Origin: a virus
IMG/VR virus record: IMGVR_UViG_3300027419_000014
Reading direction: 5' to 3' (one strand)
Length of the DNA stretch: 40,579 bases
A program made the translations under genes and the position numbers. The notes beneath the pieces are model-generated. The model saw nothing but the letters and a program-made list of their open reading frames with translations. It made no database searches and was not told where the DNA came from. Shown here one piece after another: positions 3,480 to 40,579 of this stretch. Position 1 is the stretch's first letter; each line of letters begins with the position of its first letter.

Positions 3480-4019
3480 TTATATCACTAAACTTGTAAG
3501 ACGGGCAAAACAATAGCCTGACTTAAGTTGATTAGTTGTCTGCTGGCCGGGTGTAGTGAAAAATACATAACCAGGGAAAGCAACATTACCGGAAGATGTC
3601 AGAGTAAGAAGTCCGGCTGGAGTTACATAAGAAACTTTTCCAGATACAGGATTGTAACTTGCAAGCATTGGGGCTGCTACAACCGCATCGAGGTCTATAA
3701 TCATAGCCGCCATATCACCGCTTGAATATTCACCAACTGTCTGATTAATTGTTGCACTTGTCTGAGAAGCAGCTTCCAGAAAGCCTACTCCAATTATAGA
3801 ATAAGTATTTGTGCCATCATTATAAGCAGCTGCACCAAGAACAATTTTCATTCCTATGCCGACAAATTCCTGAAGCGTTACAACTGATCCTATCGGGGCT
3901 GTAGTTACTCCTGCACCTGAAGGAATTACAAACGGTACATTATCAACTCTGCGAATGTCAAATTGTACCGCGCCTTTTTTCGGGTTTGTTTCCCCTATTC
4001 CAAGTGTTATACCGGGCAT
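3480..4019 (-). CDS. Hypothetical head protein (decoration or minor capsid candidate)
   Basis: 179-aa Gly/Ala/Thr/Val-rich ORF between the scaffold and capsid genes. Confidence 0.3.
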   Translation of the reverse strand: MPGITLGIGETNPKKGAVQFDIRRVDNVPFVIPSGAGVTTAPIGSVVTLQEFVGIGMKIVLGAAAYNDGTNTYSIIGVGFLEAASQTSATINQTVGEYSSGDMAAMIIDLDAVVAAPMLASYNPVSGKVSYVTPAGLLTLTSSGNVAFPGYVFFTTPGQQTTNQLKSGYCFARLTSLVI

Positions 4020-5212
4020 TAGAACACCTCCGAAGTATGTGAATTAGCCGCACTATCCGGCTTTTTTTCTACCATTTCCGCATATTTCGCATTGACCGCT
4101 ATAATACGGGCTGCCGGGTCAATTTCCTTAATCCCTAGCATATTTGCAAGAGATACAAAAGAAGGTGTTTTTGAACCGAAGTCGATATTAAGAGCAGTAC
4201 CTACAGCCGCTACAAGAGCCTGTGTTGGCTTGGCATTTTCAAGAGTAGTATCTTCTTTGCTATCCTTTGATTTTTTTTCTTTTCCCTCTTCCGCTTCTTC
4301 TTCTGGTGTTTCCTTACCTTCATAAGCTGCGTTTTCAGCTTCTTTTTTCTTCATTTCTTCATTTTCATCTTCAAGGTTTTTTACCTTGTTCTTCAGTTCT
4401 TTAATCTCGTCTTCTGCATTGCGAGCAGCCAGTTCTTCCTTGACCGCATTTTTAACGATTGCGGCTATTTGTTCGGGGGTCATTTCTGCCATACGTTTTT
4501 CCTCACTTTTAGAATCCTCACTTTTATAAATTCCGTCAGTATTTACTACTACGGCGTTATTCACTGGAACAGTATTTCTAACTTGTATTTTATTTTCGGG
4601 ATCTCTTACGCTTTGTGTTAATGCTATATGAGTTACTTTTAAATCATGCGCAATCGCGTTGTATTCCTGTCCGTCTGGAGTTACACCTGATTTTACTTCA
4701 GCTATAAAATCAATAAAAGCACTTGCTCCAAATTTATCTTTATCAATATTTTCATTGATATAATCAACTTGATCTTTTCCTTTAACAACTCCGTCAAGTA
4801 TAGCCGCCTTCTTAATTTCATCATAATGAACTGTAGAAGCCCATCCGTCTATTTTTTTATTTTTTTCATTCGTTGTTGCGCCATGTCCAACTCCTACCAC
4901 AAAAGGAGCGAGTTCAAGATTTTTAAGAAATTTTTTAGATGAAACTTCCTCTGGAGGATAATAAAGATGAATATTTTTACCGGCAAGTCGCGGGTCATTT
5001 ATTTTAAGTTCTTCGGGAGTATAATTTAAAACCCCAACATGTAAAGCTGGTACGGTAATTTTTAATGATGCTATTCTTTCGGAAGTATCATTTTTAACAC
5101 TATACCGAATTTCTGGAATTCGTTTTGTATACTTTCGTTTAACCGGTTTTGGGGCAGGTTTATTTAAAATTCGTCTGATTATTGATTGTATATTCATAGT
5201 TTTTAATCTCAA
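4019..5212 (-). CDS. Scaffolding protein, possibly a protease-scaffold fusion
   Basis: 397 aa with a globular N-terminal half and a highly charged Glu/Lys coiled-coil C-terminal half (EEKRMAEMTPEQIAAIVKNAVKEELAARNAEDEIKELKNKVKNLEDENEEMKKKEAE...). It sits between the Mu-F-like and capsid genes. Confidence 0.45.
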   Translation of the reverse strand: MRLKTMNIQSIIRRILNKPAPKPVKRKYTKRIPEIRYSVKNDTSERIASLKITVPALHVGVLNYTPEELKINDPRLAGKNIHLYYPPEEVSSKKFLKNLELAPFVVGVGHGATTNEKNKKIDGWASTVHYDEIKKAAILDGVVKGKDQVDYINENIDKDKFGASAFIDFIAEVKSGVTPDGQEYNAIAHDLKVTHIALTQSVRDPENKIQVRNTVPVNNAVVVNTDGIYKSEDSKSEEKRMAEMTPEQIAAIVKNAVKEELAARNAEDEIKELKNKVKNLEDENEEMKKKEAENAAYEGKETPEEEAEEGKEKKSKDSKEDTTLENAKPTQALVAAVGTALNIDFGSKTPSFVSLANMLGIKEIDPAARIIAVNAKYAEMVEKKPDSAANSHTSEVF

Positions 5213-5554
5213 CTATTTCCCGCGCCTAACCTTTTCGTCTTCAGCAATTCTTTTTGCTCTATCTCTGCCAATATCCCTGTTAATTTGTTTATCTCTTTGT
5301 ATGGCTAATAAAATGGATCTCTTAAATTCCTCATCAGACATTCCATATTTTTTATTATCAAATCCGAAAGGGTCTTTTTTCTCCATTTCATCATATAGTC
5401 TCAAGAGTTCGGTGTCTGATTTTGCATTCTTTGCAGAAAGTTTTTCAATTTTATTTTTTAATTCTTTTATTTCTCTATCTCTGGAGTTTCCTGCTAATAC
5501 TTCTTTCACTGCGTTTCTTGCTATTGCCGTCAACTGTTCAGGGGAAATATCCAT
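5213..5554 (-). CDS. Small coiled-coil protein, paralogous to a segment of the scaffold
   Basis: 113 aa. PEQLTAIARNAVKEVLAGNSRDREIKELKNKIEKL closely matches PEQIAAIVKNAVKEELAARNAEDEIKELKNKVKNL in ORF 4019..5212. Confidence 0.35.
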   Translation of the reverse strand: MDISPEQLTAIARNAVKEVLAGNSRDREIKELKNKIEKLSAKNAKSDTELLRLYDEMEKKDPFGFDNKKYGMSDEEFKRSILLAIQRDKQINRDIGRDRAKRIAEDEKVRRGK

Positions 5555-5608: not shown

Positions 5609-6361
5609 TCAAGCATTTTTTTCATATACAGTGTAATTACGTAATACTTTTTCTCTTTCTGGTGCTATTTCTGCCATACACCGGCAACCAAAATCCGTCC
5701 CTGCATTCCCTTTATGTTCCTTGCCGTATTTTGTAATTGTAGTTGGAGGATCTGCAAACAGAAAACATTTACCGTCAAGCTGCATGTGTGTGTTTCTTAC
5801 CCGTTTATCTTTTTGAGTTCGCCAGAAATATCTATCACTAAAATGTTGAATAATACGCTCATTTATTCCAGTTCCCAAATCATAAGCATTTTCCTCCCCA
5901 TGTTGTTTTGCCAAGTCTTCAAAATTATCTTTAAATGAAAAGACCTTGTAAACAGTTTCATTCTCTTTAGCATCATAAAGCTTATCAATAACCTTTTGAG
6001 CATCTTTCTTGTCTTTAAGTTCTGCGAGGGCTTTTTCAACTAGGTTATTTTGCTTTTCATTTGCAATTACTTTTAAGGTACTTTTAAGTGCTTCCTGTTT
6101 TCTAAGCCATTCGGTAACCCAACCATCCAACGTGCCTCTGTAGACATTCATACCTTTCTGTCTGTAATGCTTTTCAAGTTCGTGCCGGTATTCACGGGAA
6201 AAATGTAAAGCATGTTCGTTATAATCCCATTCTGCTTCCTGATCGGTTGAATCCGTCCAGATAGTATAGGCATAACGGGAAACTGCATTTCGCCATCGAG
6301 GAGCGAGTTTTTCAAAAATATCAATCATCTTCTTTTTCTTTTTTAAATTTTGATAATTCAT
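5609..6361 (-). CDS. Phage Mu F-like / SPP1 gp7-like minor head (morphogenesis) protein
   Basis: The C-terminal motifs WRTQKDKRVRNTHMQLDG and GNAGTDFGCRCM match the conserved R-x-x-H...DG and CRC signature of the Mu F family. The gene lies near the portal. The start could be 6361 or the Met at 6328. Confidence 0.7.
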   Translation of the reverse strand: MNYQNLKKKKKMIDIFEKLAPRWRNAVSRYAYTIWTDSTDQEAEWDYNEHALHFSREYRHELEKHYRQKGMNVYRGTLDGWVTEWLRKQEALKSTLKVIANEKQNNLVEKALAELKDKKDAQKVIDKLYDAKENETVYKVFSFKDNFEDLAKQHGEENAYDLGTGINERIIQHFSDRYFWRTQKDKRVRNTHMQLDGKCFLFADPPTTITKYGKEHKGNAGTDFGCRCMAEIAPEREKVLRNYTVYEKNA

Positions 6362-6518: not shown

Positions 6519-6845
6519 TTATTTCATCTCTTCTACTTCTTTTGAGCCGTTTATATTCTCTTGTTTATATTCAGGGTCTAAATCCTTTAAAAGAGATTCA
6601 AACTCGCCTATATGTGTTTTTTCTTCTTTGATCACATCCAATAATACTTTTTTAACCAATGGATTTTCTGCCATATCAGCCAAAGAAGTATAAAGATTTA
6701 TTGCGCTTATCTCTGATGCAATAGCCGTTCTCAATATTTGGCTGCAATCAGTAGAACCGGATTCAATTTCAGTAGTAGTAGATAAGTTTAAAAATGATTC
6801 TTTTACTGCGTTCTTTATAGTCATTGTTAATAAGTATTCATTCAT
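6519..6845 (-). CDS. Ferritin-like / rubrerythrin-like half-domain protein (EncFtn-type)
   Basis: 108 aa. ILRTAIASEISAINLYTSLADMAENPLVKKVLLDVIKEEKTHIGEFESLLKDLDPEY carries E45-x6-Y52-x22-E75-x2-H78. This is the two-helix di-iron motif and spacing I recall for encapsulated ferritins. Confidence 0.5.
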   Translation of the reverse strand: MNEYLLTMTIKNAVKESFLNLSTTTEIESGSTDCSQILRTAIASEISAINLYTSLADMAENPLVKKVLLDVIKEEKTHIGEFESLLKDLDPEYKQENINGSKEVEEMK

Positions 6846-6857
6846 GCCATTCCTCTT

Positions 6858-8468
6858 TTAAGATAATGGGCGAGTAAGAATTGATTTTTTACTTTCACCT
6901 GATCTAGGATTATCTTGAATTTCTTCAACTTTAACTAATTTTACATCTTCTGATAGAAGTCCTTCATCTTTAAACGCTTTTTCAAGTTCCGGATAACTTG
7001 CCATTCTTATGAGCGTTTCTACTTTTTTACTGTTTAAATCTGCTTTTTCTTGTTCTGTCTCATCATATATATTTTCAAATACAATGTCAAATTCATCTTC
7101 TTCAATTCCCATTTCTGATAATTCTTTATCATACTGGATCATTGTATTGACCATAAATCTAAGTAAAGGCTCTATCATATTTACTTGATACCGAGAGTTA
7201 ATATTTTCGTTAGTACTTGCAATTTGAAAAGCGGCTTGGCTATACGCTGCATTGCCCCCTCCAAAGAAGTATTCCGGCGCGCACCCGGTGACAGAACCTA
7301 TAAAATCTTTAAAAACTGTGGCAATATCCGCTGTACCTGGAGAAATATTATTATTTAATATGTCGAGAGTCATTCCTTTAGCTTGCTCAATCGGGGTACT
7401 GACACCCATAGTCTGCGAAAGTCTGTTTAATTGAGCTTTCATTTTTGCAAGCATTGTATCAGTACTTATTTCTCCTTCCATTTTTTCAATTATAATTTGG
7501 GAGCGAACAAGCAAAATTTTAAGAATATGAACGTATAAATTCCATGCTTCTGCAGCTGTTCTTAACTGAGGGAGTCTGTTTAAACCTACCCCAAAAAGAG
7601 GCTCAAATCCAGGGCAAGTAAAAAATGCCGAAACTCCATGTTTAAGCTGTGCCCCCATGCAGTAAATGTCCCCCACTTTCATAGGAGAATAAGGCTGTGT
7701 AACTCCTGAATAAGAGCTACCCATTGCATAAGCAAATTGAGTGTCATTAAAAACATTGAAGGTCACGGAGTCCCCCCGCTGAATAGGTACTACGAGAGAA
7801 CCCCGCGGAGAGAGGAGGGAATAAAAGAGGGCATCTTTAATAACGTGTTTTATTTTACGCTTATGAATTAAAGTTTCAACTGCTTCATTAAATTTCTTAT
7901 TCTTGGTCTCGATTGTAGGAAATTTCTTTAAAGCTATTGATAAAGGTCTGTCAACCATTTCGGCCAGTGTCGGCATTGCAAGGTAATCTATATAATTTAT
8001 ACGGTAAGGGGAATAATCAATATAAGACATGAGGGTTGAAGGATCACCAGTCACATTGATCTTTACCGCACCGTCTGCAAAAACTGAGTTAAAAGCCGAT
8101 GTGAATTTACTTTCTGCTACCTGACTTGCTTTAACCAGTTTATCTTTTAAATCTTCTGTAGCGTTTATAATTTCTGTGATATATGGTTTAAATTCACCAC
8201 TTTTTATATTCTTAACCCGATCATGTTCCCGCTGCGCATAGGCATATACAAGATTATTCTGATTTATATTATTATTGCTGTTTTGGCTGTTTTTTATTTC
8301 TTGAAGTTCCCGCATTGCGCTGTTTATAATTCCATCGATATTGTGGACTTCAAAGGCGTTTCTTATTTCAGTTACAAGCTGTTTATTCTGTACAACTTCA
8401 TTTTCGGGAAGTAAGGCCAGTTTTTCTACAGCGTCAACCATTAAGGATAGCTGTTTATATGCGTTCAT
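6858..8468 (-). CDS. Portal protein
   Basis: 536 aa and the largest ORF of the head module. It lies upstream of the Mu-F-like gene, and its size and acidic C-terminus are typical of portals. Confidence 0.65.
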   Translation of the reverse strand: MNAYKQLSLMVDAVEKLALLPENEVVQNKQLVTEIRNAFEVHNIDGIINSAMRELQEIKNSQNSNNNINQNNLVYAYAQREHDRVKNIKSGEFKPYITEIINATEDLKDKLVKASQVAESKFTSAFNSVFADGAVKINVTGDPSTLMSYIDYSPYRINYIDYLAMPTLAEMVDRPLSIALKKFPTIETKNKKFNEAVETLIHKRKIKHVIKDALFYSLLSPRGSLVVPIQRGDSVTFNVFNDTQFAYAMGSSYSGVTQPYSPMKVGDIYCMGAQLKHGVSAFFTCPGFEPLFGVGLNRLPQLRTAAEAWNLYVHILKILLVRSQIIIEKMEGEISTDTMLAKMKAQLNRLSQTMGVSTPIEQAKGMTLDILNNNISPGTADIATVFKDFIGSVTGCAPEYFFGGGNAAYSQAAFQIASTNENINSRYQVNMIEPLLRFMVNTMIQYDKELSEMGIEEDEFDIVFENIYDETEQEKADLNSKKVETLIRMASYPELEKAFKDEGLLSEDVKLVKVEEIQDNPRSGESKKSILTRPLS

Positions 8469-8956
8469 ATTCTGTGCTCCATTATATTATTTAACCGTGC
8501 GAACTCACAATGATATTTAAGAGCGGCGATATTATAAGCAATAGCAGCTTGATCTTTTGTTTTAAATGATCCTAGATAAATATCTTTAAAATTTATACAA
8601 ATTTGTGACCTCCATTTTTTAACTGCTTTATTAAAATAAACTCCCTTATATCCCGAAGTATTATTACTTTTTTTCATTGCATTTCTACTATTTTGTGCAA
8701 TTGTAGATTCTCTTAAATTCAATCTCTGGCAATCAAGTCCATTACCGTTAATATGATCTGTCATATTAAAACCTGTTAACTGCCTATGAAGAGCTATCGT
8801 ATATTGCTTTCTATTTTTCGTAAAATTACGAACTAAATAAAATGTATTTCTGTTTTTTTGTATTTTCCATTTGTATTTTTTAAATTCTTCCCAATCTTCG
8901 TCATCAATTAAGACTTCATGCCTTCCATGGTTTTTACTTTCAATTATAAATATCAT
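8465..8956 (-). CDS. HNH-AP2 homing endonuclease
   Basis: DHINGNGLDCQRLNLRESTIAQNSRN is an HNH_3-type motif. It is followed by GYKGVYFNKAVKKWRSQICINFKDIYLGSFKTKDQAAIAYNIAALKYH, an AP2 DNA-binding domain. The gene overlaps the portal start by 4 nt. Confidence 0.75.
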   Translation of the reverse strand: MIFIIESKNHGRHEVLIDDEDWEEFKKYKWKIQKNRNTFYLVRNFTKNRKQYTIALHRQLTGFNMTDHINGNGLDCQRLNLRESTIAQNSRNAMKKSNNTSGYKGVYFNKAVKKWRSQICINFKDIYLGSFKTKDQAAIAYNIAALKYHCEFARLNNIMEHRI

Positions 8957-10601: not shown

Positions 10602-11204
10602 CTATAATTTAATGATCTTGCCTATGCCCCAAAATATATCACTTATCTTTTCCGGTTTATCTCTAAGAAAATCATCGCAGGCAACTTTAACACCGGGGAG
10701 CATCTCGCCTTCCAGATCGTGTATGAGGATAATCCCGCCTTTAGACATCTTATGATAAACCTTATAAAAGCTGTCCATTATAGATGAATAAAAGTCCCCG
10801 TCAAAAAAAGCAAAACATATTTTATCCGGATATTGTTCATCGGGTATATCGCAAAACCAGCCTTTATGAACGACTGGACATTCAAGACCGGCATCGGCAA
10901 AGGTCTGTTCAAATTCATGCTGCTCTTTCTTCATGTCGCCTTGTTTACAAAGATCGCCGTCAATTTCTAGCGGTTCTGGGAGTCCTTGAAATGAATCGTA
11001 CACATGAAAAGTTTTATCTGAATTCATAGCATCCAGTAGGCGTCTGATATATAGGGAGGTTGTTCCGATATTACAGGCGAGCTCTACTGCGTCACCCGGT
11101 AGAGTTAATGTCTCAAGCAGATTATCAAGAATATACATTACTTGAGGGATGTTTACCAGCGGTGAAATTGTCTCTTTATTTCCATTTATTATTTTATAAA
11201 TCAT
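10602..11204 (-). CDS. TylF/macrocin-type class I SAM-dependent O-methyltransferase
   Basis: GDAVELACNIGTTSLYI is SAM-binding motif I. The protein also has HVYDSFQGLPEP and FAFFDGDFYSSIMDSFYKVYHKMSKGGIILIHD, as in TylF-family methyltransferases. Confidence 0.6.
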   Translation of the reverse strand: MIYKIINGNKETISPLVNIPQVMYILDNLLETLTLPGDAVELACNIGTTSLYIRRLLDAMNSDKTFHVYDSFQGLPEPLEIDGDLCKQGDMKKEQHEFEQTFADAGLECPVVHKGWFCDIPDEQYPDKICFAFFDGDFYSSIMDSFYKVYHKMSKGGIILIHDLEGEMLPGVKVACDDFLRDKPEKISDIFWGIGKIIKL

Positions 11205-12575
11205 TTATATACCTTCGTTATAACTATTTAAAGTTGTTGAAAAATGATGTTTTGCATAGCATTTTTCTGATCCAGTATAATTATCCCCAGAAAAATGTTC
11301 TCTTTGGAAAAACCACGACGGGAATATTTTAACATTCTGAGCTGTCTTTTTATACATCTCCCCTACATATTTATTACCGGTTTTTCTGAACGGTTCCATA
11401 TCTCCCGTAATACCGTCTTTTTTTAAGCCGTCAATCAGTTCTTTAGCAAATTTAGAACCCTTTACAGCAGCCAAAAGAGGTTGAATAAATCCCGGTCTTG
11501 ATTTCTCATTTTCCCAAAATGAATATGAATCATATTGATCTGTAAATAATTCATTTATCGGTAATAGACAGGTAGTATCCGCATCCATAAAGACACCGCC
11601 ATATCTAAATAATATTTCATACTGTACCACGTCTTTAAGTCCATGCCACATTTTTTTAGTGTAATAATAATCAACAAGTTTCTGATTTTCCCATTTTTCA
11701 GCAAATATTTCTTTTTCTGTCCATAGCCTGTATAAAAAATCTGGATTTTTTTCTCTCCATGTCTGCATCCATTTTAAAGGGGCGGGATTATCTGAAACCC
11801 ATAATTGATGAATCTGTTTTGGAATTACAAATTTCTCATTATCAATAAATTTATAAGCTTCCCTATTAAGTCCGTTATGGCCTACAAGTGAGGGCTTATG
11901 GTCGTTATGATCTATCAGTGAGGGTATAGGGAATATCATCTGAAACTTATTTTTCATAACCCACAAAGAAATCCTTTCATCATCATGGCATTCTGTTAAT
12001 GTGTCATAAAATTCGAGCATGGATTCGATTTGATTAGTCGGCAAGCAAACTGCAACTCCCCCACGGTTACGGCCTTCCAGCTGATAACCTTGAATTTCAA
12101 ATTGTCTCATCTTCGCTGCGTCGTATTCAGGCCGGATAAAAAAGTTATACCCATACACCGGACGGCAATGTGATATTCTCTCAGACTCCATGTCTGTTAT
12201 AAACTGTTCAGCCCGTTCTTTAAACCGATGGCAGATGATAGCATCATCCTGGATAACAACGTGGAAATCCGATTTTGGGTCGTGCATCATCCATGCAGCT
12301 TTACAATTTTCTATCAGATTGTTTTTCTGATCGATTGAAAAAGGAACTTCTCCAAGTTTTTCTCGTAAATAAGGAAAGTTTTTTGATCGGGAAGGATGAG
12401 CCATAACGGAAATAGAAAGTTTAATTTTCGGTATTTTCGGAGAGTCTAATTCGATTATATCCCCTAAATCTAAATGCATTTTTATAATAGCATATGGATA
12501 TTTATTTTCAGGGATATAATCACCATATTTATATTCGTTAAAGTTTTTTTCTTTATTGTTCCACATTAAATTCAT
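11205..12575 (-). CDS. Two-domain glycosyltransferase (GT-A-like N-half plus DXD sugar-binding C-half)
   Basis: The N-half has ISVMAHPSR...VVIQDDAI. The C-half has IPKQIHQLWVSDNPAP...LFRYGGVFMDADT, which is typical of the Gly_transf_sug (OCH1/capsule type) DXD family. Confidence 0.6.
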   Translation of the reverse strand: MNLMWNNKEKNFNEYKYGDYIPENKYPYAIIKMHLDLGDIIELDSPKIPKIKLSISVMAHPSRSKNFPYLREKLGEVPFSIDQKNNLIENCKAAWMMHDPKSDFHVVIQDDAIICHRFKERAEQFITDMESERISHCRPVYGYNFFIRPEYDAAKMRQFEIQGYQLEGRNRGGVAVCLPTNQIESMLEFYDTLTECHDDERISLWVMKNKFQMIFPIPSLIDHNDHKPSLVGHNGLNREAYKFIDNEKFVIPKQIHQLWVSDNPAPLKWMQTWREKNPDFLYRLWTEKEIFAEKWENQKLVDYYYTKKMWHGLKDVVQYEILFRYGGVFMDADTTCLLPINELFTDQYDSYSFWENEKSRPGFIQPLLAAVKGSKFAKELIDGLKKDGITGDMEPFRKTGNKYVGEMYKKTAQNVKIFPSWFFQREHFSGDNYTGSEKCYAKHHFSTTLNSYNEGI

Positions 12576-12585
12576 AAAATAAAAT

Positions 12586-13950
12586 TTATCTCCTTTTCAG
12601 AATATTCAATGCTTTGACATATTCAGCTATTATTTCAGATGTTCCTAAAGCTTCCACTCCCCCGGCTAAACTATCCGCTTCATCATCATGGTCAACATCC
12701 TTATGATAGCGTGAAACTCCGATACTAAAAGCCTGCTGCGTTCCCTCTAATATTCTCATACTTTCTTTTTGCGATGTTATTGTTGCCATGATTCTTTCAT
12801 GCTTATTTCTACTTTGATGTTTCCATGTCCACAGGTTTTTAACTTCATATTTAGCTTCGTCCTGTTTAAAAGCATCTATAAAGAATATAGTTGAATCCCC
12901 TAATTGACTTTCAAATACGGTTTCTATTGGAGTATATATATTTAAAAAGTCAAGCATTTCTATTCTTATCTGATGATCCGCAATAGAATGTTGCCAGCTC
13001 ATACCGGTAAATATAATTAAATCTTTACTTACGCCCACAATAGCCACAGATGTTCTATCAGTACCTTTCTTTTCTGAAAAGCTTGAATCTATAAAAGCAA
13101 GGCAATATTGGCAATCCCATAAGGGAACCGACATAAAAGCCCCCAGGGTTTCCCTGTCTTCTACATGCTTTAACATGTAGTTACACATCCATTCAGAATT
13201 TGGCAATCTTCCTTGCCGAGCAGCAATTTCTTTCATTTCATTCTCGGATAAATTTACAGTCCCAAAGGGGAATTGGCGCTCTTCAAATATTTCTTTTGGA
13301 AATATTGAAAAAACATCGCTTTCATGCCAGGGTGTGCCGGATAAACGAGTCTGCCCTAATGGATCAATAAGATTGTCTAATTCTTGGAAATAAGCAATAG
13401 TCCATTTTCTTTCTGCTGCGCTGTATCTATCATCTATGGTAACAATATCGTCCGACCATATATAATCAAAGTGCGCTCCGGTTATAGAAGCTCCTACTCC
13501 TACCGCTGACATAGAAGGATCAGGAGTAATTGTACGTTTAAAAGAAAAATTAGTACGTTCCGATGACCATATTTTTGTTGAGGCATTAACTATTTCCCAT
13601 CTTGAATATAAGTATAAACGAATAACATCAGAGGTAAGCATATGTGTTTGAATGGTTTTAAGTATAGCAGAGGCCAAATCCCCCGTTTTTCGCACTATAA
13701 GCAACCTCATATTCGGGTAGCAAAAAAAAAGCAAAATCATAGCTACGATTCCGCTTGTTGTTTTATAACTACCTCTATGGGCTTGTAATACGTCAAACTT
13801 CTTATATTTTAAGAAAATCTTTATCCATTTACCGTGAGTTTCTGTTAATTTATCATAGCCAAGTAAATGACCGAATTCATGGGGATTTTCTAACCAGTCA
13901 TCTAACGCGGATACATGATCAATCTTTTGTAGTGATGCCATGTTTTTCAA
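12586..13950 (-). CDS. terL: Terminase large subunit
   Basis: 454 aa. It has a Walker A-like AHRGSYKTTSG, a Walker B-like FDYIWSDDIVT and a C-terminal nuclease-like AFIDSSFS...DHDDEADSL. It directly follows terS. Confidence 0.85.
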   Translation of the reverse strand: MKNMASLQKIDHVSALDDWLENPHEFGHLLGYDKLTETHGKWIKIFLKYKKFDVLQAHRGSYKTTSGIVAMILLFFCYPNMRLLIVRKTGDLASAILKTIQTHMLTSDVIRLYLYSRWEIVNASTKIWSSERTNFSFKRTITPDPSMSAVGVGASITGAHFDYIWSDDIVTIDDRYSAAERKWTIAYFQELDNLIDPLGQTRLSGTPWHESDVFSIFPKEIFEERQFPFGTVNLSENEMKEIAARQGRLPNSEWMCNYMLKHVEDRETLGAFMSVPLWDCQYCLAFIDSSFSEKKGTDRTSVAIVGVSKDLIIFTGMSWQHSIADHQIRIEMLDFLNIYTPIETVFESQLGDSTIFFIDAFKQDEAKYEVKNLWTWKHQSRNKHERIMATITSQKESMRILEGTQQAFSIGVSRYHKDVDHDDEADSLAGGVEALGTSEIIAEYVKALNILKRR

Positions 13951-17272: not shown

Positions 17273-18181
17273 CTATTTTGTCAGTTTATACTTTGCTGAA
17301 TATTCGTCATTATACTTATAATCTTCCCACCAGACAGAATTGAAAACAGAAGTTATATTTACCCACCGACTAAATCTTTTTTGTTCTTTTGTTGGTTCTT
17401 CATTAGTTTTAAAATTTCTGTATGGCTGGCAAAACGGTTCGCAGTATAATCCTTTAATTTTTTTGACTCTTTCCATTGCTTCTGGAACTTCTTTAACAAT
17501 CGTATAGACAAAATACCGTGACGGTCTGACATTTCTCCATCTTAAATTAGTTACTGCTTTTTGCAATGATTCAAATGAAAATTCGTTATCACAAGCCAAT
17601 CGAACTGGATGAAGCCATTTAACTTTAGACAATAGTTTTGCCATAGAATCATCAATTAATCTTGAATCCAGTCCTTGATTAAAATCTACCTTTATTTTTA
17701 ACTCAATTATCTTCTCAATCTGCTTAATCCCGTAGTCGCTTGCTAGTACGTTGTTGTCCATTAAAACCGCAGATTTGTGTTCGCCAATAAAATGATCAAT
17801 ACTTGAATAGGATTTTATAGTTCCCTCTTTTTCTGGCACTATACACCAACTGCATTTATTTGGGCACCCTCTAGTCAAGAATCCATAAGCGTGTTCGCAA
17901 TCATATAAAGAATAATCTGGAATCATATTGTCTATTTCTTGGGGCAATTTAGATTTTATATTATATCCAGTTCCTCCGATTATTGTTTCACCAAAACAAG
18001 TAAAATTTATATTTGTATCGTGAGTAAATGTAAATACCTTAGATTTATAAACATTGTTATACCAAGAATTTTCTTTAACAAATTCCACAGTATCACCAAA
18101 AGATTTATGATAAGCACTTATTTTCATAAGTGCAAGATTAGGGAAATTTTTATTGTCTACATCTATCAATCCTATTTTCAT
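17273..18181 (-). CDS. Radical SAM enzyme with an N-terminal Rossmann/B12-binding-like domain
   Basis: LTRGCPNKCSWCIVPEKEG carries the CxxxCxxC [4Fe-4S]/SAM motif at about residue 105. The N-terminus MKIGLIDVDNKNFPNLALMKISAYHKSFGDTVEFV resembles the N-domain of class B radical SAM enzymes. Confidence 0.7.
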   Translation of the reverse strand: MKIGLIDVDNKNFPNLALMKISAYHKSFGDTVEFVKENSWYNNVYKSKVFTFTHDTNINFTCFGETIIGGTGYNIKSKLPQEIDNMIPDYSLYDCEHAYGFLTRGCPNKCSWCIVPEKEGTIKSYSSIDHFIGEHKSAVLMDNNVLASDYGIKQIEKIIELKIKVDFNQGLDSRLIDDSMAKLLSKVKWLHPVRLACDNEFSFESLQKAVTNLRWRNVRPSRYFVYTIVKEVPEAMERVKKIKGLYCEPFCQPYRNFKTNEEPTKEQKRFSRWVNITSVFNSVWWEDYKYNDEYSAKYKLTK

Positions 18182-40066: not shown

Positions 40067-40579
40067 TTAATTAAAATTAAATAGAATTGTTGCATAATGA
40101 GTTGCTGAAAAAGGTCTTATTTGACCCACAATACTTCCTACTGGAATTATACCTTGACTCTGCCAAGACGGATTAAGTCCATCAATCTGAGTTTTAGATT
40201 TCATAATCAATGTATAATCGGCCTTATTAGTTTCATCAGTTGAAATTACTCCCAGGCTCCATAAAATTCCAAGTGCAGTATTAACAAGAGAATAAAGTTT
40301 ACCAACTCCCTTCATACTTGCTTCAAGTCCGGTCTGCCCAGCAGCCTGAAGAGCATTCCTGCAAAATACAGTTACATAATCGTCAATATAATCCTCTGCA
40401 ATAATTGATTCTATTTCCGGCGTTGTCGGGGGATTAACAGAGCTGTTCATATATGTATCATAGACAAAAAGTGAGCCGGCCTGATCTTTTGCACCGTTAT
40501 ATTGTGCTAAAGAATTAGACTCTATATATGATCTAGTTGCAGCATTATATGTGTCTCCATTTACGCCTGGTAAATCGTG
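40067..40579 (-). CDS. Tail sheath protein, C-terminal part (continuation of 775..1)
   Basis: The track ORF 40067..40450 is open upstream through 40579 in the same frame. Nt 40453..40579 duplicate nt 1..127, so this is the 3' part of the wrapped 386-aa ORF. Confidence 0.6.
   Translation of the reverse strand, partial: HDLPGVNGDTYNAATRSYIESNSLAQYNGAKDQAGSLFVYDTYMNSSVNPPTTPEIESIIAEDYIDDYVTVFCRNALQAAGQTGLEASMKGVGKLYSLVNTALGILWSLGVISTDETNKADYTLIMKSKTQIDGLNPSWQSQGIIPVGSIVGQIRPFSATHYATILFNFN
40453..40579. repeat. Terminal duplication copy 2 (identical to 1..127)
   Basis: Exact 127/127 match to the window start. Confidence 0.95.

Follow-up and report, generated by a model that had tools for sequence, protein, structure and literature searches.

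An encapsulated-ferritin-type half-ferritin gene in the head operon of a tailed phage, and related domains fused to portal and scaffold-like proteins

Results

The half-ferritin gene and its product

The DNA analysed here, called the window, is the whole stretch of 40,579 nucleotides (nt) of the IMG/VR virus record IMGVR_UViG_3300027419_000014, and the subject of the study is a small gene at positions 6519-6845 whose product, Ftn, belongs to the encapsulated ferritin (EncFtn) type. An earlier reading of the letters alone, hereafter the sequence-only reading, had proposed that an open reading frame (ORF) of 108 amino acids (aa) at this place encodes a half-ferritin. The frame is real and contains exactly the peptide that was quoted for it, and it lies on the minus strand, a point left unstated at the time. 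The gene and the parts of its product are the following.

6519..6845, minus strand: half-ferritin (EncFtn-fold) gene, 108 aa, ATG start; assigned from the Rubrerythrin Pfam family, PDB entry 5n5e, Foldseek and the ratio of nonsynonymous to synonymous substitution rates (dN/dS)
6852..6855, minus strand: GAGG ribosome-binding site, 6 nt before the Ftn ATG, read from the sequence
6789..6839, minus strand: N-terminal helix specific to the phage clade, residues 3-19; block mean predicted local distance difference test (pLDDT) of about 66-78 in the AlphaFold2 (AF2) model; candidate capsid-loading peptide
6747..6788, minus strand: probable flexible linker, residues 20-33; block mean pLDDT of about 54, residues 21-23 below 50
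6525..6746, minus strand: Ftn core domain, residues 34-107, with helices 34-58 and 62-89 and a short C-terminal helix 91-107; carries E45, Y52, E75 and H78

The stop codon of the portal gene (TAA, 6858-6860) was read only 12 nt upstream of the Ftn gene, and this short distance, together with the gene's own GAGG site, shows that Ftn is tightly embedded in the operon.

In profile searches Ftn matched the Rubrerythrin family of Pfam (PF02915) with 46 bits, for a cut-off of 22.8, in such a way that profile positions 2-61 of 137 were covered. A phmmer search of the PDB gave as best matches the EncFtn of Pyrococcus furiosus (5n5e, E=8e-17, 50% identity) and the fusion protein of the P. furiosus virus-like particle, PfV (2e0z, E=8e-16), the latter bearing out a resemblance that had been noted from the sequence, and these were followed by EncC (E=1.8e-6) and EncB of Myxococcus xanthus. 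The two best matches in NCBIfam were likewise ferritin-cargo families of encapsulins, NF058679 (63.7, cut-off 90) and TIGR04535 (52.6, cut-off 125), and matches to Dps in the same database were marginal (E of 0.004-0.008).

A monomer was modelled with AF2 from an alignment of 66 sequences, and mean pLDDT over blocks of 10 residues reached 85-98 along residues 31-108. The model shows the two helices that had been predicted, plus the short third one. When it was compared with the PDB by Foldseek, almost all of the top 50 structures belonged to the EncFtn family, the best being 5n5e with a root-mean-square deviation of 1.0 Å over 74 columns, 50% identity and a target-normalised template modelling score of 0.73. 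Direct counting gave the spacing E45-x6-Y52-x22-E75-x2-H78, as had been stated, and in the alignment with 5n5e these four residues correspond to E32, Y39, E62 and H65. Glu32, Tyr39, Glu62 and His65 (Rhodospirillum rubrum numbering) define the ferroxidase centre of EncFtn (PMC5012862), in agreement with the role that the sequence-only reading had given them. Across 102 diverse members of the family the four positions show no variation or a conservation of at least 90%, and E45, Y52, E75 and H78 are invariant in 30 of 30 distinct viral copies, free or fused, down to around 33% identity.

The product of the 108-aa ORF is therefore confirmed as an EncFtn-fold half-ferritin, a member of the EncFtn/Rubrerythrin superfamily with its ligands conserved and not of an unrelated helical family. 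Other assignments were tried and rejected. A classical ferritin or a Dps is ruled out by the presence of a half-bundle only and by the marginal matches to these families; a rubrerythrin, by the coverage of half of the profile, the lack of a rubredoxin domain and the two long helices within 108 aa; and a chance helical protein, by the E-value against 5n5e and the conservation of all the ligands.

The C-terminus of Ftn, ENINGSKEVEEMK (...NGSKEVEEMK), forms part of the third helix, and no GSLK-type encapsulin targeting peptide was seen there on inspection, as had already been remarked. A hidden Markov model (HMM) built from PfV-type shells found no match in the window, where the neighbours of Ftn are portal and Mu-F genes, or in the viral loci described below. 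In this protein, the word "encapsulated" describes the fold family, not the lifestyle.

Position in the head operon and conservation in the phage clade

The Ftn gene belongs to a head-morphogenesis operon, as deduced from the Pfam and PHROG assignments of its neighbours and from synteny with related phages. It had been placed between the portal and Mu-F-like genes; these flanks hold (phrog_146 and PF04233), but a 63-aa ORF that was not mentioned lies before the Mu-F-like gene. The module contains the following genes.

12586..13950, minus strand: terminase large subunit; phrog_38, E=4e-32
6858..8468, minus strand: portal protein, 536 aa; phrog_146, E=6e-10, with a weak match to PF06381
6321..6512, minus strand: small ORF orf63, 63 aa, between the Ftn and Mu-F-like genes; phrog_13916, E=8.6e-6
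5609..6361, minus strand: Mu-F / SPP1 gp7-like minor head protein, 250 aa; PF04233, E=6.6e-9, and phrog_324, E=2.4e-12
5213..5554, minus strand: orf113, a coiled-coil protein of 113 aa; RNAVKE at residues 13-18
4019..5212, minus strand: scaffold-like protein of the DUF2213 / Pa193_gp24 family, 397 aa; PF09979, 24.9 bits (cut-off 22), and phrog_530
3480..4019, minus strand: head-module protein, 179 aa, in the usual position of a decoration protein; synteny with related loci L002 and L011 at 68-96% identity
1983..3467, minus strand: putative major capsid protein, 494 aa, from gene order only; 82% identity to its L002 homolog

The order portal-Ftn-MuF is kept in four related viral loci (L002, L003, L004 and L011), with Ftn proteins 65-94% identical, and the portal of the window is 73-85% identical to those of L003, L004 and L011. 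A protein identical to Ftn is encoded on five contigs of 20-50 kb. Pairwise dN/dS values of Ftn range from 0.10 to 0.22, the same range as for the portal, DUF2213 and 179-aa genes, with synonymous sites near saturation, and the Ftn gene is thus under purifying selection. An expansion of the clade from metagenome contigs gave no new members among the matches listed. Neither did a scan of genomes for Ftn find a prophage copy, and for this reason no host was assigned.

The content of the junction between the Ftn and Mu-F genes varies, with orf63 in the window, an HNH-like ORF in L011 and nothing in the other relatives, and the Ftn gene itself is constant. Homologs of orf63 were found in none of the other loci, so that it does not travel with Ftn, and it is probably an insertion at a junction that is variable among relatives. 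As a side observation, an HNH homing-endonuclease gene (8465-8956) lies directly upstream of the portal gene in the window, and from this gene and the HNH-like ORF of L011 (L011:4916-5474) mobile small genes seem to target junctions of the head operon.

Regarding the remaining genes of the module, the Mu-F-like gene also matches TIGR01641 of NCBIfam, under its cut-off. The orf113 product is paralogous to the C-terminal, coiled-coil region of the DUF2213 protein (52% identity, E=1e-7) and is probably scaffold-like. In the DUF2213 protein itself KNAVKE occupies residues 253-258, ahead of a coiled coil, and the paralogous C-terminal part starts just past internal Met codons (RMAEMTPEQ...). This arrangement recalls nested protease/scaffold genes such as lambda C/Nu3, and a separate scaffold product from an internal start of the DUF2213 gene is possible. 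Searches of Pfam, PHROG and NCBIfam gave no family for the 179-aa protein. The 494-aa protein had no match in Pfam, PHROG, NCBIfam, the PDB or GenBank phages, its single-sequence AF2 model had a pLDDT of 34, and it is named as the putative major capsid protein from its operon position.

The N-terminal extension

Nearly all the cellular relatives align only from about residue 27-36 of the window protein, and the region of the N-terminal helix is therefore essentially confined to the phage clade. The extension is constrained, with a proportion of nonsynonymous differences (pN) well below that of synonymous ones (pS). Residues 11-16 of Ftn (6798-6815) read KNAVKE, and the more general motif [KR]NA[VI][KN]E occurs three times in the six frames of the window: at the N-terminus of Ftn, at the N-terminus of orf113 and at residue 253 of the DUF2213 protein, where it sits just past an internal Met and ahead of the coiled coil. 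All three sites share the spacing NAVKE-x9-EI[EK], and the pattern [KR]NAVKE-x9-EI[EK] is confined to these three proteins. The motif is kept in the homologs of the clade, with codons that differ at wobble positions.

The N-terminal helix may accordingly be regarded as a candidate capsid-loading peptide. When residues 1-33 were compared by Smith-Waterman alignment with all 71 genes of the window, the similarity was not significant, as 153 of 500 shuffled sequences reached the top score, and we therefore keep the loading role only as a lead. An alignment of the window DUF2213 protein with Pa193 gp24 through the PDB gave coiled-coil noise only, and for this reason the KNAVKE helix was not placed on the capsid-binding hairpin of gp24.

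Ftn domains fused to portal and scaffold-like proteins in other phages

Scans of IMG/VR gave 31 viral loci with an Ftn domain, and one weak match was found among 50,697 GenBank phage records. In several of these loci the domain forms part of a larger head protein. The clearest case is a protein of 583 aa (P0274; loci L021 and L033-L035), found on nine contigs from independent samples, which consists of a full DUF1073-type portal followed by a C-terminal Ftn domain. It is encoded in a module of TerL, portal-Ftn, Mu-F-like protein, DUF2213 protein, a protein of around 171 aa and a capsid protein (PF09950), an architecture like that of the window. Portals of this family typically have around 483 aa, and the closest relative (P0275, 79% identity) lacks the domain, so that Ftn is an add-on to this portal. 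The C-termini of portals face the capsid interior.

Two more portal-Ftn proteins were found (P0133 and P0349), and at L128:4456-7161 a single frame of 902 aa joins a Pbunavirus-type portal (9b41, E=4e-35), an EncFtn domain (5n5e, E=9e-24) and a topoisomerase IB (2f4q, E=2e-20). Past its Ftn domain this protein has the junction motif HPRRDDGKF, similar to HPRDEEGKF in the C-terminal extension of the L022 portal, and the motif may be a linker or a processing site.

The domain is also found on scaffold-like proteins, as Ftn, with or without a NUDIX domain, forms the N-terminus of the DUF2213 protein in L022 and in P0152. The comparison of L021 and L022 is informative in this respect: their portals are 76% identical over 487 aa, and their Ftn cassettes are 66% identical and have in common the linker RTDANL. 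The same cassette is thus attached to the portal C-terminus in L021 and to the N-terminus of the orthologous DUF2213 protein in L022, from which it seems that a tether to a capsid-internal protein is all that the Ftn domain needs. In place of Ftn, the L022 portal (L022:1693-3831) carries a different C-terminal extension of around 220 aa, which looks acetyltransferase-like by eye and had no NCBIfam match, and the swapping of cargo domains appears to concentrate at the portal C-terminus.

Other partners were detected as well. In L028 the Ftn domain is combined with NUDIX and phrog_1250, and LigD Prim-Pol and InPase domains occur elsewhere. In the cultured Eggerthella phage LE2-3 (L032, MW679026; 4426-9196) the Ftn domain lies inside a protein of 948 aa that adjoins a 621-aa protein with an ArdA antirestriction domain, with cement and capsid genes just beyond, and both proteins look like packaged or injected polyvalent proteins.

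A further group of viral copies was noted on account of its N-terminus. The Ftn proteins of L013, L014 and L016 start with MK(K/T)TLNFD(D/E)FLNE (MKKTLNFDDFLNE in some viral homologs), whose final L-N-E resembles the L/I-x-E cleavage motif of T4 gp21, and T4-type portal or Gp23 capsid genes lie at most 2-3 kb from Ftn in L012 and L023. Proteins of the L013/L014/L016 type may be internal proteins of the kind that carries a capsid-targeting sequence (CTS). PHROG matches of the genes next to Ftn in L012, L023, L014 and L013 were not informative.

Free-standing relatives

The family as a whole is very large: at E<=1e-3 it comprises 2,916 representative clusters, mostly of free-standing proteins of 93-150 aa. 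The nearest cellular relatives of Ftn are 47-60% identical to it and belong mostly to Methanosarcinales, DPANN archaea and Patescibacteria. These relatives are free-standing and have no shell gene nearby, which shows that the half-ferritin fold does not require a compartment. Some cellular members (P0007 and P0185) have a signal peptide or are annotated as substrates of the twin-arginine translocation (Tat) system, which implies the existence of exported, non-encapsulated half-ferritins. Archaeal fusions of Ftn to Linocin_M18 (P0092 and P0130) belong to the same sequence subfamily.

Other features of the window

The window comes from a tailed phage, as it contains terminase genes, a baseplate wedge gene and an exonuclease. 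Positions 1-128 are repeated at 40452-40579, so that the window is a complete circular (or terminally redundant) genome of around 40.45 kb, and the copy on a JGI contig is circularly permuted relative to it. Nearly all the genes are on the minus strand, the cumulative GC skew falls steadily, and the GC content lies at 30-40%. Genes for tRNA were not found in the window, and a search of the head module against GenBank phages at the DNA level gave no match.

Two sets of accessory genes were also observed. Between the terminase and the head genes (10602-12575) there are a TylF-type methyltransferase (PF05711) and a glycosyltransferase (PF04488); the TylF gene is also kept in L003, and these enzymes may modify a virion component. 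A radical SAM protein is encoded at 17273-18181 (phrog_9298, E=1e-91), and L027, another viral contig with Ftn, has a radical SAM gene nearby, so iron-sulfur enzymes of the phage and the half-ferritin may be linked.

Discussion

Comparison with known systems

The closest known counterparts of Ftn are the EncFtn proteins of Family 1 encapsulins (PfV 5n5e/2e0z, R. rubrum Rru_A0973 and M. xanthus EncB/EncC), which have the same half-ferritin fold with a short third helix, and ferroxidase residues with identical identity and spacing. Both are tied to shell systems of the HK97 lineage. However, Ftn of the window has neither a targeting peptide nor a shell gene, in such a way that its shell would be the genome-packaging capsid itself, and it differs further in the extra N-terminal helix and linker and in the replacement of entry-site acids by serines. 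In EncFtn-shell fusions the tether is the shell protein, whereas in the phage relatives of Ftn it is the portal or the scaffold.

Phage systems offer other parallels. When an effector domain is joined to a portal or Mu-F protein, this is accepted as a sign of a packaged, often injected, phage protein (Iyer et al. 2017, PMC5512222), and such polyvalent and portal-MuF effectors are encoded, like Ftn, in the portal-terminase head module beside Mu-F. Homologs of Ftn are likewise found on portals and in company of NUDIX, InPase-type and topoisomerase domains, and their packaging is deduced here from the same architecture. In contrast to these effectors, which attack nucleic acids, proteins or nucleotides, the window Ftn is a solo domain whose chemistry would be metal redox, and the main text of that paper names no ferritin or rubrerythrin.

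The N-terminal CTS by which internal proteins of T4 are loaded binds the scaffolding core and is then cleaved off after L/I-x-E (PMC9026906). The window Ftn is likewise small and non-essential-looking, with a short N-terminal helix that resembles scaffold-like proteins of the same operon, a resemblance not significant by shuffling. Unlike in T4, no T4-type prohead protease was identified for the window phage, and the DUF2213 family is annotated as a protease in PHROGs and as a scaffold in PMC11456595. The latter work describes Pa193 gp24, a member of the DUF2213 family detected in mature virions by liquid chromatography-mass spectrometry, of which a helix-turn-helix was resolved on the inner side of the capsid, bound at the five-fold vertices (PMC11456595). 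The window has a DUF2213 protein downstream of Ftn, and relatives fuse Ftn to the N-terminus of such proteins, though Ftn itself is not a DUF2213 member.

There is also a precedent for a virion protein of the ferritin superfamily, as a Dps/ferritin-like DNA-binding protein was detected in virions of phage G (10.1101/2024.12.16.628780), with a proposed role, as for Ftn, in shielding DNA from iron chemistry. However, the four-helix bundle of Dps is complete and builds a closed cage of 12 subunits, whereas the window Ftn is a half-bundle, unable to store iron alone.

Ftn as a possible capsid-internal di-iron protein

The identity of Ftn is solid and the fusions are striking. The data show its fold, its ligands, its place in the operon, purifying selection and the fusions in relatives; the packaging of the free-standing protein, its oligomeric state, its ferroxidase activity, the loading role of the N-terminal helix and a protective function we infer. 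Capsid-internal packaging is the most likely reading on account of the portal and DUF2213 fusions in other phages, which give strong indirect support to the idea, already raised in the sequence-only reading, of packaged capsid cargo; for the free-standing protein of the window the same location would follow by extension. Taken in full, as a capsid-internal di-iron protein with a Dps-like protective function, we judge this reading to be evenly balanced between right and wrong.

The following sequence of events may be envisaged. Ftn would be made late, together with the head proteins, be built into the procapsid and stay in the DNA-filled head, and its N-terminal helix and linker may dock it to scaffold-like proteins or to the capsid interior, a placement that related phages would obtain covalently by fusion to the portal C-terminus or the scaffold N-terminus. 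By homology, two Ftn chains would pair, each contributing E45, E75 and H78 to a di-iron ferroxidase centre, with Y52 alongside. Fe(II) would then be oxidised inside the head, or beside the DNA at ejection, curbing Fenton damage to the genome as Dps does. Virions in anoxic habitats rich in iron, like those in which the nearest relatives live, could plausibly benefit from such protection.

Several observations weigh against this interpretation. Regarding the protein itself, the score against the EncFtn-like family of Pfam (PF22277) is 20.6 bits, below the curated cut-off of 27, and those against NF058679 and TIGR04535 are also under their curated cut-offs. In the window clade the acidic positions of the entry site are occupied by serines, S44 and S47, where R. 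rubrum has E31/E34 and the family consensus A/D. The similarity of the N-terminal region to scaffold-like proteins failed the shuffle test, and in the Smith-Waterman comparison of residues 1-33 the top score is shared by the small terminase subunit. As for the context, the capsid protein of the window is assigned from gene order only, and packaging is deduced from fusions in phages that are only distantly related. Around two thirds of the viral homologs examined are in non-structural or unidentified contexts, with neighbours such as an endonuclease and a methyltransferase (L014), SbcCD (L018), an ATPase (L019) and radical SAM genes. The closest relative outside the clade (L127, 56% identity), which has the same D47S change and an N-terminal extension, is encoded beside an NAD-dependent DNA ligase. 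Finally, a PfV-type shell gene was found within 8 kb in none of 80 cellular loci, with an HMM of limited sensitivity.

Other explanations of the gene

Part of these observations would also fit if Ftn were not packaged at all. It could be a moron or auxiliary metabolic gene, that is, a soluble late half-ferritin that buffers Fe(II) or oxidative stress in the host cytoplasm, for example for the iron enzymes of the phage, and that was inserted by chance at the portal/Mu-F junction. Many viral homologs are indeed free-standing beside genes of DNA metabolism or unidentified genes (L014, L018, L019 and L127), and so are the cellular relatives; the Ftn/Mu-F junction takes insertions such as orf63 and the HNH-like ORF of L011, the N-terminal motif is not significant, and the phage encodes an iron-dependent radical SAM enzyme. 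However, the gene keeps an identical place next to the portal even though synonymous sites among the relatives are near saturation, and the N-terminal extension specific to the clade is also constrained. Independent fusions to the portal C-terminus and to the N-terminus of scaffold-like proteins are hard to square with an action in the cytoplasm. We consider a cytoplasmic role doubtful.

If Ftn is packaged, it could also be ejected with the DNA and act in the new host as an effector, for instance against responses that depend on iron or on reactive oxygen species. This proposal has the packaging step in common with that of a capsid-internal protective protein, and differs from it only in the place where the chemistry matters. 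The fusion and neighbour partners found (NUDIX, InPase, Prim-Pol, topoisomerase IB and ArdA) are typical polyvalent domains, the Ftn gene is near a Mu-F / SPP1 gp7-type gene, and packaging with injection is what Iyer et al. infer for domains fused to portal or Mu-F (PMC5512222), although ferritin-like domains go unmentioned in their main text. But a domain on the portal ring or on a vertex-bound scaffold would need proteolytic release before ejection, no protease or cleavage site was identified in the window, and the window Ftn is a single domain and not a polyvalent protein. An injected effector is in our opinion unlikely.

A third proposal dispenses with the redox role and takes Ftn as an assembly module, a metal-dependent dimerisation or oligomerisation domain that would organise the portal or the scaffold, with the ligands kept for metal binding in the dimer. 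The assembly of EncFtn is in fact driven by metal at the same residues, its H65A mutant being monomeric (PMC5012862), and the domain is fused to oligomeric assembly proteins (a 12-mer portal and a pentameric scaffold fragment). Against it, the domain is dispensable for assembly, as close relatives of the fused portals lack it (P0275), Y52 is invariant along with the ligands, which fits catalysis, and all the characterised members of the family are active ferroxidases (10.1101/431494). We regard a purely structural role as very unlikely.

Returning to the capsid-internal di-iron protein, it could be taken further, to phage heads that work as encapsulin-like iron-oxidising compartments. Along this line, the partnership of EncFtn with its shell would be ancestral to, or exchanged with, phage head modules, and phages with a tethered Ftn would be living intermediates between HK97 procapsids and cargo-loaded encapsulins. 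We hold this extended proposal to be quite unlikely; an evolutionary link between phage heads and encapsulin cargo systems, which the sequence-only reading had also raised, is put forward here as a hypothesis.

Significance

Encapsulins are regarded as domesticated phage capsids of the HK97 type, and their defining cargo proteins have so far been described on the cellular side only. In the main census of encapsulins, phage neighbourhoods were excluded on purpose (PMC8346489), and the co-assembly of phage-encoded cargo-like proteins in procapsids is raised as no more than a speculation in a 2025 preprint. In agreement with the impression of the sequence-only reading that such a gene was undescribed, literature searches found no account of a phage head module with an EncFtn-type protein, or of such a protein fused to a portal.

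The fold of an encapsulin cargo, with an intact catalytic site, is now found in three phage settings: as a conserved gene of the head operon, as portal fusions in several lineages and as a fusion to a scaffold-like family located inside the capsid. One more domain thus joins the catalogue of packaged phage proteins, and the finding suggests that the enzyme cargo of encapsulins can also be carried by the capsids of real viruses, which they resemble. It also suggests that iron, and protection from Fenton chemistry, exert a selective pressure on virions where the habitat is anoxic and rich in iron. Two questions become testable: whether redox enzymes are present inside virion heads, and whether cargo loading and scaffolding are evolutionarily connected. 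If the tethered-Ftn phages were living intermediates, the equivalence proposed between scaffold and cargo would have direct evidence at the genetic level.

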